A stretch of 64,000 nucleotides of DNA from Squalus acanthias (Eukaryota): contig CM059431.1 in the NCBI GenBank assembly GCA_030390025.1, positions 117,492,001-117,556,000 of the forward strand. Reading direction: 5' to 3'. Positions 32,760 through 64,000 of this stretch are shown here, one piece after another (position 1 is the first letter of the stretch; every line of letters starts with the position of its first letter). The notes under the pieces were generated by a model. The model ran no database searches and was not told the DNA's origin. It saw only the letters and a program-made list of their open reading frames with translations. The translations under genes were made by a program, and so were the position numbers.

Positions 32760-34168
32760 TGTAAGGGGTTCGGTGTCGTAGGTGCTTGTATCGCAGACGG
32801 TGCTGGTGCGGGGTTAGGCCTTCGTTGCCTAATACTATTGCTTGCTCTGGTCTCCGGCCAGCCTTGTTGCAATAAGCACCTGTGAGTGGTTCGACCCACT
32901 CGCCCGTTACAGGTTCTAACACTGGACTTAGGTGCGAGAGCAGTAATGCAGAGAAAAACTCAAATAGACCTGGTTGAATAGTATGAAATGGAAATCTTTA
33001 TTGCATAGCGTCTAAAATCATGAAGTACATGTCATAGGCACAAATTAACGATAGTACAAGTATACATACATGCATAAAGCTTGGTCTATGGTAATGAAGA
33101 ACGCACGGCACATCGTAAAAAGGGGAACACATTACTTTATCCTTAATAAAACCACCCTCCCCTATCAATACATACACTACATCTAGATTTGTAGGATCGC
33201 GAAACATGCTCACCACTCGTGATACTTCGGAGAATTTTAAAGTGAGACGCTCGGCTTGTTTCGCTGCAGCGCCTGACTGTCACGTGTTTTGAGGGGTCTC
33301 TGTACCCCACTTGTTTATCTTCGCTGCTGCTGCAAGCAGGCTGGGCTCCCTGTTGTCATGAAGAACTCGACAGTGCTCGGACACGGTTGTAGAAGTCCAG
33401 AGAGACAATCAAAAGCTCACCAGTCAAGCGAGTCCATGAAGCGGCAAGCAAATAAGAGTTCAGCAGTCATCAGCCAGATAAGGGAATAATAAGCAAGAGT
33501 TCAGCCCGAGTCCAGAGTCGAATCAAGAGACCGATGGACATTTGTTCACTATAGTTATAGTGCTGTATTTTCTTATCTCCCACCCAAATCTTAATGTTTG
33601 TCCTTTGTAAAATATTGGCGCCCAAAACTCCCAGCATGGGGTGATTCTTGTCTGTAATGGGTTTCGGTAGCACCTGCAACTGGCCAACTACCCATTAATG
33701 TTTTTTTCCCATTGTGGAACCGGCTAGGAGCCTCCCTGGCGGGGTTTTGGGGGCCTCCGAATACTTGTGTAAGCACCCGAGAATGGCTCTCTCATTGTAG
33801 AGCCGTGGGGAATTTGCGTATTGATGTATCGGGATGGGCCTTCGATTGCCCAGTACAATGGTCCTTACTTGTGCATGGAAAACGGTTCCAGCACTTATAT
33901 CTCTTGCTATTGTGTCGAATGCAGACAGGTTGCATCCTGTCTTTATCAGTGTTTGCTGCGTATTATCCAATCTTATACTGAAATGTTTATTCGAACGCCA
34001 TCTTGTCTGTCCACTGAAAATTCTGGAAGCTTCTGCCACGAGGCGCGGCGGCCATTTTACAGGCTTCTGTGTCCTGTTTAATCATGACAGCATTTTGTTT
34101 AAATAAAACTGATGAAATGAATCTGCTTTATCTCGTTATTTCGAATCGCGATAATTGCGAATTTTATA
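32760..34168 (-). mobile_element. Solo LTR (1409 bp), same family as the proviral LTR at 60414-62095
   Basis: 4-bp TSD CCAG at 32756-32759 and 34169-34172. The minus strand begins TATAAAATTCGCAATTATCGCGA (cf. TGTAGAATTCGCAATTATCGCGA) and ends CCCCTTACA; AATAAA at 32997-33002. Confidence 0.9.
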
Positions 34169-59310: not shown

Positions 59311-59745
59311 ATGGCTCTCGCCTTCGAGTCAAATGTTTGGTTCAAGACCTACTCCAGGGATTTGAGCACAAAATCTAAGCTGACGCTCCAGTACAGTACT
59401 GACGGAGTGTTACACTGTCAGAGGTGCCATCTTTCAGATGAGACGTTAAACCGAGGCCCCGCCTGCCCTCTCAGGTGGATGTAAATGACCCCATGGCACT
59501 ATTTAGAAGAAGAGCTGGGGAGTTCTTTCCGTTGTCCTGGCCAATATTTATCCCTCAACCAACACCTAACAGATTACCCGGTCATTATCACATTGCTCTT
59601 TTGTGGTACCTTGCTGTGTGCAGATTGGCTGCCACATTTCCTACATTACAACAGTGACTACACTTCAAAAGTACTTCATTGGCTGTAAAGCCTTTTGGGG
59701 CATCCTGAGATCTTGAAAGGCATTATGTAAATTGCAAGACTGTCT
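59311..59745 (+). mobile_element. Near full-length DeuSINE (SacSINE1/AmnSINE1-related)
   Basis: Degenerate tRNA head (GGTTCAAGACC); Deu-domain GAGGTGCCATCTTTCAGATGAGACGTTAAACCGAGGCCCC...CAGGTGGATGTAAA.GA.CCCATGGCACTA; L2-like tail followed by (CTTT)n. Confidence 0.8.
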
Positions 59746-60413
59746 TTCAATCAATCTTTCTTTCTTACTTTCTGTCGTTCTTTCTTCATGAATGGAAGCT
59801 ACATTCTGCTGGATGTAATGGGGCTGTAAATGAAGTAATTTCCGGGAACTCTCCCAGAAACCCTCTTGATGTGGGGGTGGGGGAAGACTTGGCCACTCCC
59901 TCCAAACCGAATTTCCTAGGCTTCTTGTATTGGGCGGAATCCTGGTGGGCGATGCATCGACTCTGTGCTTTCTCTGGCCTCAGATATTTTGCAGCCTCCA
60001 GCTTTCTGGATAATGCTGAGTGCAACTGTGAAGGACAGCTCGGGAAAGAAAGGAGATTTTTAAAGTACTGTTATGCTAGGTCACAAGCTGCCATTCAAAC
60101 ATTTTGTCAGAGGAGCCCCTGAAAAGATGCTTTATTTCCCTCAAATAACATCTTCCTTAGTCAATCGCCTGCATTGCTGGGAGGCTCAGTGTAGCCAATC
60201 TACATTTGCTCAGACATTTCTGGACCATTAAAGGTTACCTTTGTGCCTTTCAATTTCACACCAGCTTCCGAGATGAAAGGATCATTGTGTAGATTGCAGA
60301 CTTTGACATCTTTTTCCTTGACACTTCCTCATCTCTAAATTGACTGTAAATTTATCATCAGAAAAGATATTGACTCACTTTTCTAGATATTGAACTCTTC
60401 ACCTTTTGTGAAC

Positions 60414-62095
60414 TGTAAGGGATTCTCCTGACCCTGCGTGTCTCGTAGCCTGTGAGATTCACGCGGCTCTGTGCAGCCTGTATGTCAGTGCGGGTCTAGG
60501 CCTGGTTGCCTGTTCTGGTCTCCAGCCGGTCTGGGAACACTAGACACACCTGTGAGTGGTTCGAATCACTCTCCCTTACGGTTCTAGACACTGGACTTAG
60601 ATGCGAGAGCAGTAATGGAGATAAAACTCATGTAGACTTGGTTTGAATGGTACGAAATGGAAAATCTTTATTGCATGATACTTAAAATTATGAAATACAT
60701 GTCATACGCACAGATTAATGACAGTACAATTCTGACAAACGGTTATAATCAATCTTAGGGAAACGAGGAACGAACGGCACAACGTAAATAGGGCACACAT
60801 TACAAATATCCTTAATCTTTAAACCCTCCCCTATCAATATCTATCCTAAACTAGCTTCGTAGGATCTCGAGACTCATGCTCACCACTCGTAATAACTCGG
60901 AGAAATCCCGAATAGCTGATCGGATGTTTTTCACCGCAGCACCCACGTGTCGGTCAGGAGATCTCCCGGTCCCACTTGTTTACTGGCTTCTGCTGCTCGG
61001 GCTAGTAGGCTGGACCGTCTGCTGTAGTGAAGACCTCTGTTGGTTGACTTCACAGTTTAGTCGAGGAGCACCGTTGTCAATATCATTGATACGATGTGTT
61101 TGCACAGTCCAGTTATCATTGATGCAATATGCTTTGTTAGAAGTTTAAAGAAGAAAACTTCCTGTCGAGAAGACTTGGCTGATCGACCTACAGGCGCGGT
61201 CGGGATTTACTGACCGTGGCGATGGATATGGTCTTCTTCTCTTCTCCTCTCATCTCATCTCATCTCATCTCATCTCGGGCCTTTGGTTCCGCTGCCAGTT
61301 ACCAACATAGGTCTTCGTTACGCGACACGAGGTAGATCCGAACGGATCAGAAAGTTCAACAGTCTTTTACACAGGAGCAGCCACGAGGTTACGAACCGAC
61401 CGGATAAAACACAGGAGCAGCCACGATGATAAGAGCAGCAAGCGAGCAAGAGCGGCAAGAGAGCGAATGGACGGTTTGGGGCCTGCAATTATAGTGCAAA
61501 AATCTTCCGTTTCCCGCCCAACTATAATGTCCATTCTTTTGTTTAGGGTTTGGCGCCCAAATGTCTTGTATGGGTGATCTCCGTTCTTAATGGGTTTCGG
61601 GGCTACTCATGAATGTTTGAGTACCTGTTAATATTTCTCCCATTGTTAAATCGGTCGGTGTTCTCCCTGGAGGGGTTTGGGGCTTCCAAGTGTCCTGTAT
61701 AACTACCTGCTAACGGCTCTCTCATCGTAGAGCCGTTGGGAGTTTACATATTAATGTCCTTTGGATGGGCCCTTAAGTACTTGGTACAATGGCTTTCCTT
61801 TGCACCTGGGAGACCGATTCCAGTATCTATGTTTATACTGCAAACCCATAATGTCCCGTGTATTATCTTCACTGTGCTGAATCGTTATCGATCTTGCAAA
61901 AAAATGTTTAATGGAACGCCATCTTGTCTGCCTGTTGAAAAGTCTAGAATGTTCTGTCACGAGGTGCGGCGGCCATTTTACAGGCTGCTTGTGTCCAATT
62001 TAAACCTGACAGCATTCTGCTGAAATAAAAGCTGTTTGAACGAAATTTTGTGTTTTCTCCTTATTAATCAAATCGCGATAATTGCGAATTCTACA
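60414..62095 (-). mobile_element. 3' LTR (1682 bp) of an endogenous retrovirus
   Basis: Minus strand TGTAG...CCTTACA, directly after the PPT. Boundaries are corroborated by the homologous solo LTR with TSD. Candidate TATA near 61488-61493; AATAAA at 60667-60672. Confidence 0.92.
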
Positions 62096-62105
62096 GTCCC
62101 TCCTG
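62096..62105 (-). promoter_or_regulatory. Polypurine tract
   Basis: CAGGAGGGAC immediately before the LTR's TG. Confidence 0.75.
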
Positions 62106-62520
62106 TTGATGCGAATAACTCCGCTTATCGTATCAAAAAAATCTCAGTGGTGAGCAATCTTATCTCGATTTCACTCCGAATCCAGTAAATTAATCCCATA
62201 AATTTTAACTTAACTAGGGTCTCTGTGTCATCCTCATTTCCCAAGAAAATCACATTTTATATCACCGTAGGCATCATTTGCCCTTAAACTTACACCACTT
62301 GTTTTCCTTTCCGGCGTAACCAGGCCGATACCTCACGCATCACCTGTATATTTGTCTTTTATTCAAGGAAAGGAAAAACAAAACCCAAAACCAAACAATC
62401 AACACCATCACCAAAAATAAACAAATCCCAACTCTTAAACATGTCGAGTTTCCAACGTATTTACAATGAGTACAAACTTCCGCGGCGCACGCGGCGAGCG
62501 GGAGTGGCGCCATTTTCCGA

Positions 62521-63999
62521 TTACACGGTGCTCTCATCGTGCACGCGCACGTAACGTTCTCGCCACTCTCCCGTGTTTTCATGCTTGGTGAGGCGCTTGT
62601 CTCTTTTACAATGTATGACCAATAGGTACACTACAATAAACACTTGACAGACGACTAAAATGTGGGAGGCTATTCTGATCCATGAAGGCACTTCAATATT
62701 CGTGAACAGATTCCACCACGGTGGAACCACTATGTCCAAAATGTCTGTTCCTATCTCGACAGTTTTCTGCTCTAACGTATAAAAATGCTTCTGTGATACC
62801 GCGACGGCTTTCAGAAGTTTGGTTAAATGCTCAGGGAGAGGGGGAATGAGGTATCCAAAATGCGCGACAAATTGCTGCAAGTCGGTGAAATTCTCTTTTA
62901 CTGTGAGATGAACAGTGGATGGTTCAGGGATTGGGATAATTCGCTGTTGTGCTACTTGAACTTCAGCCCTGGGTTTAAAACAGAAACTGCTGTCACTCAC
63001 CGGACACCGGCTACGGTTTCCATGCTGGTAGTGTTGCGCTGCAGTGGTAACACAATATGTTCCACCCCCGATGTATGCTACCTGCGGAGGCACATGATCT
63101 TGTGCCATTGCCTCCATGGTGCAATTCATGGACTTGGCGCCAGCCGTTCTGAACCCGCACTGTGGTGTTAAAAAGGCATTCAAGTGCTGGGGGCACAGTA
63201 TTATGTGTGCTCCCCTGCCACGACAACCAGAGAGATCTGTACCTGTCATCGTTTGCTCCCAGCGGATGACGTAAGGTGGAACCGCTGCATAACGAATGTG
63301 GGCTCCCCCCTGAATGACACCAATGTTCTCTACCCGATATACCGGGGCGGGCTTTGCTGTGTTGCCCAAAACCGGCATGCGTAATACTATTCCCATAATA
63401 GTATGGTTTGAACGTCCGCAGTCCACGGGGACTGGGTAAGCTTCTGAAGCTAGCCTGAGCTGGCACGGACTTAATGCGTTCTGAAAAGGGTGAAGCGCCC
63501 GTAGGTGTTTGTTACTTATCCAGGACGGAACCAAACCTTGTTTTAAATCCTCCAAATTACTGCGGCCCTCGCCCAGTAACCACGCCCCGTAAAGCACGCA
63601 CACCTCGTTCTGCGCAGCTTGATCGGATGCATTCCGATCTTCCCTAATCAGGGCATTTACCGTACGCGCATGTTTCTCCAGCTCTGCTATGATTTCCTTT
63701 AAATGGAGAGTCATGGCTTGGTCCTCGTGTAGACCTGACCCTACCACTTTATTCTCATCTGTTAGAATGTCTTTTAACTGTGTTTTTAAACCATTAATCT
63801 GGGTCTGCAGCTCCACACTGTCTAGAGCGTTGACCACAGATGTCCCTGTGTTAAAAGCAGTGAACGCATCGTTCACCACACCCCTTCTTTGTCTCCCCAC
63901 CTGACCCAAAACTTCGTGTGGTGCGGTGTACAAGCTTGTCTTGTCAATTTCTGCAAAATCAAACTCGTAAAATTGTCTGAACATCTTGGTCAACAGGAC
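62521..63999 (-). CDS. env: Retroviral envelope glycoprotein, partial (end of SU plus whole TM subunit); foamy/lokiretrovirus/paramyxo-F-like class I fusogen; reading frame open to the window edge
   Basis: Furin site RQRR (63883-63894), candidate fusion peptide GVVNDAFTAFNTGTSVVNAL, heptad-like helices and a Cys-rich domain. Sequons NAS/NHT/NCT/NRS/NFT, TM segment WIRIASHILVVCQVFIVVYLLVIHC and a short tail. Lies directly upstream of the PPT and LTR. Confidence 0.88.
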   Translation of the reverse strand, partial: VLLTKMFRQFYEFDFAEIDKTSLYTAPHEVLGQVGRQRRGVVNDAFTAFNTGTSVVNALDSVELQTQINGLKTQLKDILTDENKVVGSGLHEDQAMTLHLKEIIAELEKHARTVNALIREDRNASDQAAQNEVCVLYGAWLLGEGRSNLEDLKQGLVPSWISNKHLRALHPFQNALSPCQLRLASEAYPVPVDCGRSNHTIMGIVLRMPVLGNTAKPAPVYRVENIGVIQGGAHIRYAAVPPYVIRWEQTMTGTDLSGCRGRGAHIILCPQHLNAFLTPQCGFRTAGAKSMNCTMEAMAQDHVPPQVAYIGGGTYCVTTAAQHYQHGNRSRCPVSDSSFCFKPRAEVQVAQQRIIPIPEPSTVHLTVKENFTDLQQFVAHFGYLIPPLPEHLTKLLKAVAVSQKHFYTLEQKTVEIGTDILDIVVPPWWNLFTNIEVPSWIRIASHILVVCQVFIVVYLLVIHCKRDKRLTKHENTGEWRERYVRVHDESTV

Positions 64000-64000
64000 C

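Follow-up and report, generated by a model that had tools for sequence, protein, structure and literature searches.

The window analysed here, a 64,000-nucleotide contig stretch of the 3.7-Gb genome of Squalus acanthias, contains the 3' end of a 9,355-bp provirus belonging to a young retrovirus family. The element is read on the minus strand, and its 5' part lies beyond the window, in the following 10 kb (L011, with L011:1 adjoining window position 64000). On balance, and with moderate confidence, we take the family to be basal by its reverse transcriptase (RT), to carry an F-type envelope protein (Env) with a probable immunoglobulin (Ig)-like head, and to include a helper-dependent short form. 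Foamy viruses and lokiretroviruses also have an F-type Env; the family appears to belong to neither and to be a third such kind of retrovirus.

The two long terminal repeats (LTRs) of the window copy, 1682 bp each, differ at one position and align without gaps, as befits the young endogenous retrovirus (ERV) of the original prediction, which had been made from the window alone. At 2.2e-10 per site per year, a rate assumed for sharks (PMC4422223), this corresponds to ~1.4 million years (My); at 2.2e-9, the rate used in the lokiretrovirus study (PMC7947760), it corresponds to 0.14 My. The date is loose because it is based on a single LTR difference. Other structural expectations also held. The GAAC foreseen as the distal flank is in place (Table 1). 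The CpG-rich frame of at least 490 codons is open for 492 amino acids (minus strand, 62521-63999) and continues past the window end, with a CpG observed/expected ratio of 0.77 in env, 0.88 in the LTR and 0.42 in the remaining window. The ~415 bp said to hold no convincing open reading frame (ORF) correspond to 414 nt between the env stop and the start of the polypurine tract (PPT), which is followed by the 1682-bp LTR with its boundary at 62095. On the element strand of spacer and LTR there is no ATG frame of at least 60 aa (two, of 89-90 aa, lie on the opposite strand), and no tas/bet-like frame follows env, again as predicted.

The provirus was expected to continue past 64000. In part it does: gag, the primer-binding site (PBS) and the 5' LTR were recovered, but pol was not. 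The window copy has no protease (PR), RT, RNase H (RH) or integrase (IN). In addition, the env frame reaches 608 aa, compared to about 815-859 aa in most of 87 scored copies, and is frameshifted by a deletion in the part coding for the surface subunit (SU), a few hundred bases past the window end. The window copy, young yet defective, is not a complete provirus but a pol-less short form with a broken env.

Searching the genome with the transmembrane subunit (TM) as query gave 11,540 candidates, of which 87 (98-100% identical) were scored and 20 of these were taken with their upstream 10 kb. Thirteen of these 20 other copies have a pol frame including YxDD, and seven are short like the window copy. 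The autonomous form is ~12.8 kb long and reads LTR-PBS(Arg)-gag-UGA-pol-env-PPT-LTR. In the short form, ~3.7 kb of pol is replaced by ~335 nt encoding a coiled-coil-like stretch, so that pol keeps about its first 10 codons and, at the other end, some 0.8 kb. The short-form ORF2 is open in 8/8 short copies (369-398 aa). Among the fetched loci, a nucleotide search places the insert in short forms only, except for its first 32 nt, which occur in three long forms. The short form is present in the main and in a diverged subfamily (LTR or gag 80-90% alike), with the marker start 96-99% identical; this sharing across subfamilies points to recombination between long and short forms.

Copy numbers come from counting, across the whole genome, exact occurrences of 20-mers that every sampled copy shares (reversed controls, 0). 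The counts are lower bounds where copies have diverged, and duplicated haplotigs may be among the matches. The short-form marker counts 1,024, RT 1,796, env SU 2,910 and the LTR 8,862. The first two together give 2,820, near the env SU count. From these counts we estimate ~2,900 proviruses and some 3,000 solo LTRs, amounting to ~1% of the genome. Pairwise ratios of non-synonymous to synonymous divergence (dN/dS) are 0.18 for env SU (20 copies), 0.14 for gag (18), 0.03 for RT (13) and 0.07 for env TM (11). Between subfamilies dN/dS is 0.19, and the SU frame is open in 20/20 other copies.

Some copies form head-to-tail arrays with LTRs that are apparently shared (L024; G000:C1:143657874-143673334; C2:133593942-133601680), spaced at ~7.7 kb for the short form and 11.1 kb for the long form. 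At another locus (L015), two inverted copies surround one LTR, with an internal deletion. Among listed public sequencing runs, 14/15 contain half or more of the env words (62521-63999), under 6 organism labels; none of the listed env-word holders is an RNA run. The near-identical env under these 6 labels (0.55-0.71 of sampled words) may mean that the family is common to close relatives or that it has spread across species. Contigs of 4 runs cover 25-26/30 bins, the element included, and leave the flank adjoining the LTR uncovered.

The coding and priming signals are those of a retrovirus. The PBS lies five bases from the 5' LTR and is complementary at 18/18 positions to the end of the host tRNA-Arg(TCG) plus CCA; it was recognised in 19/21 copies, 16 of them exact. 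Gag (603 aa) has a coiled-coil-like start, a capsid-like part (atlas score 0.95, Retrotrans_gag/Ty3_capsid clusters) and a single zinc knuckle, CX2CX4HX4C. In 13/13 long copies, pol follows directly in frame after the gag stop at a TGA-CTAG junction; a pattern search of eight short copies gave TGA-CTAG in 6, TAA-CTAG in 1 and no match in 1. A UGA-CUAG context favours stop-codon readthrough. Pol, read in a long-form copy, is 1,507 aa long and comprises PR, RT, tether, RNase H, IN and a long acidic, Pro-rich tail, and includes the dual RNase H (tether plus RNase H) that is also a lokiretrovirus hallmark. Two LTRs, a target-site duplication (TSD), PBS and PPT are present, as is, in the long form, the PR-RT-tether-RH-IN order of Retroviridae-like ERVs. 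The 22-nt end of the primer tRNA has 422 exact matches genome-wide, and tandem arrays of tRNA-Arg(TCG) genes, repeating about every 1,623 bp and accompanied by tRNA-Ser(GCT), lie at 38.9-42.2 Mb of G000:C26 (L033, L034).

Four RT trees place the family: two quick ones of 81 rows (the query and 80 of 91 matches, the rest dropped for short coverage) and 55 rows, a careful one of 39 rows and a careful RT-plus-tether one of 32 rows, the last three sets being hand-picked. Loki-type rows (P0058, P0061, P0062, P0065) carry the PFGYxNSP motif, and P0057 has the motifs of the snakehead retrovirus (SnRV) letter for letter, as listed in the supplement of PMC7947760. All four trees separate gypsy and loki-type rows from the canonical retroviruses and group the family with the latter. 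The split between these rows and the family plus the other retroviral rows has support of 99/96 (39 rows) and 100/98 (32 rows), and an approximately unbiased (AU) test rejects a clade of family and loki-type rows (p 0.037). The family RT lacks PFG[YF]xNSP and carries DISNGFW and PQGFH. Its most similar sequences are frog and coelacanth 'NYNRIN-like' Pols (RT 54-56%, IN 45-50% identity). By RT, then, the family would be a basal lineage on the canonical-retrovirus side, which agrees with the basal position originally proposed. An RT scan of viral contigs gave 7 pattern matches, none confirmed as a relative. An ostrich 'NYNRIN-like' Pol (P0056) is also basal on the canonical side, with an IN 46% identical to that of the family. 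An env-bearing Ty3/gypsy element (errantivirus) was rejected, as the RT is not of Ty3/gypsy type in the 39- and 32-row trees; intact elements of this kind were not found in vertebrates according to an errantivirus survey (10.1101/2023.10.26.564294).

The Env evidence centres on TM, which was rightly said to be 453 aa long after RQRR and to lack CX6CC and an immunosuppressive domain (ISD). TM holds 12 Cys, and a pattern search finds no CX6CC, no L.NR..LD ISD pattern and no CXXC. A gamma/epsilon-type Env was accordingly rejected, TM having neither ISD nor CX6CC and not being short. At E 0.001 or better, Env has 42 relatives; 20 were looked up and 17 carry a source name, namely 14 sharks (Chiloscyllium, Mustelus, Scyliorhinus, Heterodontus, Heptranchias, Pristiophorus), 2 frogs and 1 coelacanth. 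The closest are from Pristiophorus and Rhinoraja, in line with the probable chondrichthyan host first proposed, and the skate protein is 75% identical across the first 391 aligned residues, SU included. A 32-member profile (A1) was built from the query, P0002 and 30 of the 42 matches, without P0041, a long repeat protein matched by chance, and without 11 others that were redundant, very short or fused to host sequence. Against the PDB, the best 2/12 matches of A1 are foamy Env (E 0.0013 and 0.0077), the first over the same stretch in which a foamy-like run of residues had been noticed. A1 also matches 4/6 foamy-like env loci of the same genome (E 6e-7 to 6e-4; 36 frames searched).

A TM model made from A1 extends this, in keeping with the F-like fusogen first proposed. 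The top 10 Foldseek rows are the F proteins of human metapneumovirus (hMPV) and respiratory syncytial virus (RSV) and foamy Env 8rm1 (E 8e-7 to 6e-6); in VIA, F proteins and foamy Env fill the first 11 rows of 50 (Z 6.5-7.7); and BFVD matches are viral glycoproteins, including paramyxovirus F and baculovirus F. Each signal is modest, but the signals agree: as modelled, TM is an F-type (class Ib) fusogen core. The modelled order is N-terminal helices, Cys-rich beta domains, a C-terminal helix, a membrane anchor and a short tail. By eye, published lokiretrovirus Envs start, after the signal peptide, with a segment found ~230 residues into the family Env, which suggests an F-type core with an added N-terminal head and Pro-rich linker. 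The SU head contains a C...W...DEGIYxC pattern, and its weak Ig signals are Pfam Ig_3 at E 0.15, an atlas score of 0.79 with ten named matches all in one clan, and one relative named Ig-like. A modular class Ib scheme accommodates such a head-plus-core Env (PMC11468914). Further BFVD matches of the TM model are a protein of an abalone herpesvirus (row 4, E 1.2e-7) and a weak one, the Env of walleye epidermal hyperplasia virus 1 (row 40, E 0.003), which may hint at F-like features in a fish epsilonretrovirus Env. Env pieces sit inside host gene models (P0030, P0008 and P0012: a Heterodontus fbxo15 isoform, a Pristiophorus Niban-like and, by eye, a cadherin-like one), through exonisation or as an annotation artefact.

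These features suggest a life cycle. Gag-Pol would be made through readthrough of UGA in its CUAG context, and env would be expressed from spliced RNA. Env may then be cut at RQRR and, refolding as RSV/hMPV F and foamy Env do, fuse membranes, while the Ig-like head ahead of the minimal F core would bind the receptor. The family would spread via enveloped particles reinfecting, or passing into, germ cells; we propose that nearly every provirus keeps env under purifying selection because of this spread through particles. The short form keeps LTRs, PBS, PPT, gag and env in ~1,000 copies without enzymes of their own. Having lost protease, RT, RNase H and integrase, it must depend for its copying on enzymes supplied in trans, presumably those of the long form, like a defective-interfering genome. 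The env of the window copy would have been frameshifted after the short form arose.

Several points weigh against this reading, and the chief doubts are the exact RT branch and whether copying still needs Env. Reference rows in the trees are labelled by motif, Pfam or source name, and named viral references are absent; the foamy-like RT of the same genome (L042) is the sole, long-branched foamy-like row. The family branch is a basal polytomy in both careful trees, and its grouping with the frog/coelacanth clade reaches only a Shimodaira-Hasegawa (SH) value of 84 in one quick tree and is open in the others. Joining the family to L042 (p 0.093) or to the SnRV-like P0057 (p 0.085) is not rejected. 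Among solved RTs, foamy RT scores best, at 157 bits (murine leukaemia virus 119, Ty3 97). The tether (41-44%) and IN (42%) are near those of loki-type rows, and loki IN groups with frog/coelacanth rows at 95/89, in an IN tree that gives the family itself no firm place. We infer that the frog/coelacanth pol and env relatives lie within the same elements, and we likewise infer readthrough, splicing, particles and trans-complementation from sequence. The dN/dS copies were chosen by TM-region protein similarity, which lowers dN there, and pairs are not independent. As for Env, the TM model is of moderate quality (pLDDT 66, pTM 0.40), Foldseek TM-scores are only 0.22-0.31 and VIA Z values stay under 8, which the tool grades as common. 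A single TM sequence gave no usable Pfam or PDB match and a fold with pLDDT 35. A profile of 8 long Envs (A2) gave no meaningful PDB match, F and foamy Env included. Pfam searches with the 32 A1 members gave no shared family and no F (PF00523) or foamy match among 25 of 35 families. Finally, the Ig-like nature of the head, probable as it is, counts as a lead only.

One alternative is that the family belongs to the SnRV group (clade Huo, class III-like; CmiERV lineage I), its RT lineage having been sampled and its Env type unnoticed. We consider this unlikely. SnRV reportedly also has a tRNA-Arg primer and a coiled-coil Gag. It shares the in-frame gag-stop-pol and the single zinc knuckle (PMC1224870), as well as the RT motifs DISNGFW and PQGFH, and the pairing with P0057 survives the AU test. 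Related ERVs have been described in a chimaera, the elephant shark; they stand near SnRV and epsilon viruses and were dated over 50 My, with CmiERV lineage I at ~75 My (PMC4422223). Clade Huo also has the widest host range (PMC6001957). Yet identities to the SnRV-like row (RT 45%, tether 29%, IN 36%) are all lower than to frog/coelacanth rows, and the family is never sister to that row in 4 RT trees. Moreover, 0/20 Env relatives looked up (of 42) come from a teleost or named virus, the family has no accessory frames, and, as a weak point, its 8-nt PBS and 7-nt junction words are absent from the CmiERV supplement.

A different kind of alternative concerns the way of spreading. The copies may arise by intracellular retrotransposition in germ cells, with env a young passenger whose low dN/dS was inherited from an exogenous ancestor. 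Very high ERV copy number usually accompanies intracellular spread, and here there are thousands of near-identical copies, some in head-to-tail arrays, and a window copy that integrated recently, yet with env broken. We nevertheless hold this to be improbable. The env marker count matches that of long and short forms together, which leaves no sign of a large env-less form; what the spreading deletion form dropped was pol, not env; and the SU frame is open throughout the other sampled copies, with low dN/dS also between subfamilies.

That the family is a basal chondrichthyan lokiretrovirus seems quite unlikely to us. Its best matches are named NYNRIN-like, and we take NYNRIN to be CGIN1. Lokiretroviruses share gag-pol-env between LTRs, tether plus RNase H, an F-like Env with a furin site and possibly, to judge by similarity, a NYNRIN/CGIN1-like integrase, CGIN1 being the closest relative of loki IN; some of them also have near-identical LTR pairs (PMC7947760). 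TM and the pre-cleavage segment parallel published loki Envs by eye (GP..G.VL; LxxP[IV]; N[VI]G; CP; CG), and tether and IN are loki-like, as said. The RT points elsewhere: it lacks the loki motif, is 32-33% identical to loki-type rows and lies outside their clade in the trees and AU test given above, so that membership among the lokiretroviruses is not supported. The family Env also has ~230 extra N-terminal residues forming its probably Ig-like head, and the smc gene was not seen in the family. Lokiretroviruses were present in 0/6 chondrichthyan genomes in Fig. S1 of PMC7947760.

Very unlikely, finally, is a foamy-like ERV (clade Tu) with its accessory genes lost. A long LTR and a 4-bp TSD are foamy traits, and the family shows both. 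The best solved-structure RT match and the best TM profile match are both foamy, the pairing with L042 is not rejected, and foamy Env gp130 (8RM0/8RM1) likewise has a class Ib F-like fold and a long TM (PMC11468914). The spumavirus affinity that had been drawn from LTR length and TSD is not supported, however. Unlike spumaviruses, the family has a CCHC knuckle in Gag and pol in frame after the gag stop (PMC1224870), and it uses an Arg primer, whereas foamy-like fish ERVs use Lys, Thr or Asn (PMC5210030). The extra module of foamy Env is inserted between the subunits, that of the family Env stands at the N terminus (PMC11468914), and nothing like tas/bet is present. Foamy-like elements have been reported from sharks (PMC10699275). 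Those of the same genome (L035-L042; 11 PF03408 and 62 PF03539 matches) are separate from the family and mostly decayed. In a strict first look, the 11 matches to the Pfam foamy Env model PF03408 fall at other, mostly decayed loci and none in the family; identity to L042 is only 34-36% in RT and 21% in the tether, and the family is not its sister in the 39- and 32-row trees.

Returning to a separate, F-type Env family, two young systems offer further comparisons. The zebrafish BHIKHARI elements are non-autonomous lokiretroviruses and are likewise recently active and pol-less, with a coiled-coil Gag, but they keep gag only, whereas the short form described here keeps gag, env and an open ORF2 (10.1101/2024.03.25.586437). 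XtERV-S is also a young basal ERV with in-frame gag-stop-pol, but has an ERV-L-like pol with YIDD and dUTPase, a Ser primer and a gamma-type Env with ISD (PMC8278194). In the literature searched (mostly not subscription papers), we found no account of the family, or of a vertebrate F-type Env outside the foamy and loki lineages. The RT lineage may be among those already in clade Huo without a name (PMC6001957), and an asterisk on two cartilaginous fishes in Supplementary Data 1 of PMC10435555 may bear on novelty.

Wang and Han listed four scenarios for the origin of retroviral Env and later preferred independent gains (PMC7947760); the foamy Env structure revealed an F-like fold (PMC11468914). 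A third F-type Env lineage on the canonical RT side would shift the count towards an ancestral F-type Env, and the family supplies young, readable genes for testing this idea. Env screens that require a known TM motif (PMC10435555) could miss such a family. Moreover, ~2,900 env-bearing proviruses with a pol-less, env-keeping partner run opposite to the way in which high copy number usually arises. A broader picture is possible, though we rather doubt it as a whole: a still-active lineage of cartilaginous fish, coelacanth and frogs, between lokiretroviruses and other retroviruses, that combines orthoretrovirus-like gene expression (with readthrough and a zinc knuckle), a canonical-side RT, a loki-like tether and IN, an F-type Env and a recombining pol-less, env-keeping satellite, at ~1% of the genome. 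If true, the F-type fusogen would be the ancestral retroviral envelope, later replaced by gamma- and beta-type Envs, and receptor modules would have been added lineage by lineage, here a captured Ig-like domain.

Table 1. Features of the window copy in provirus order from the 3' end; positions are those of the window unless prefixed L011.
Feature	Position	Strand	Basis or remark
Target-site duplication GAAC	60410..60413	.	second GAAC at L011:5769-5772
3' LTR, 1682 bp, TG...CA	60414..62095	-	LTR pair comparison
Putative LTR signals	AATAAA at 60672; TATA-like words at 61837 and 61493	-	
Polypurine tract abutting 3' LTR	62096..62106	-	
Non-coding spacer between env and PPT	62107..62520	-	no accessory frame
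Env TM subunit, 453 aa + stop	62521..63882	-	open frame, profile, model
Predicted long C-terminal helix with membrane anchor	62575..62685	-	model residues 439-475
RQRR, furin-type cleavage site	63883..63894	-	putative role, from the RXKR site of lokiretrovirus Env (PMC7947760)
End of SU-coding part	63895..64000	-	continues in L011
5' part of env: signal-peptide-like start, probable Ig-like head, Pro-rich linker	L011:1-798	-	broken by frameshifting deletion
Short-form ORF2, 393 aa	L011:1089-2270	-	no PR/RT/RH/IN
gag, 603 aa: coiled coil, capsid-like part, one CCHC knuckle	L011:2271-4082	-	ends TGA, then CTAG
tRNA-Arg(TCG) primer-binding site	L011:4064-4081	-	18/18; overlaps gag ATG
5' LTR, 1682 bp	L011:4087-5768, beyond window	-	1 mismatch vs 3' LTR, no gaps

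If the TATA-like word at 61493 and the AATAAA at 60672 do function, R would measure ~800 nt, and only a few bases would separate U5 from the start of gag. Elsewhere in the window, positions 32838-34166 hold an old LTR relative (71-74% identity in two blocks of ~550 nt), probably left as a solo LTR by a related, older family. Beside the provirus, ~59334-59834 is extremely repeated, with a depth far above that of the element in 4/4 runs, and is probably a repeat like a short interspersed element (SINE). On the far side, L011:8046-8567 contains a frame that by eye resembles a reverse transcriptase fragment of a CR1/L2-type long interspersed element (LINE).

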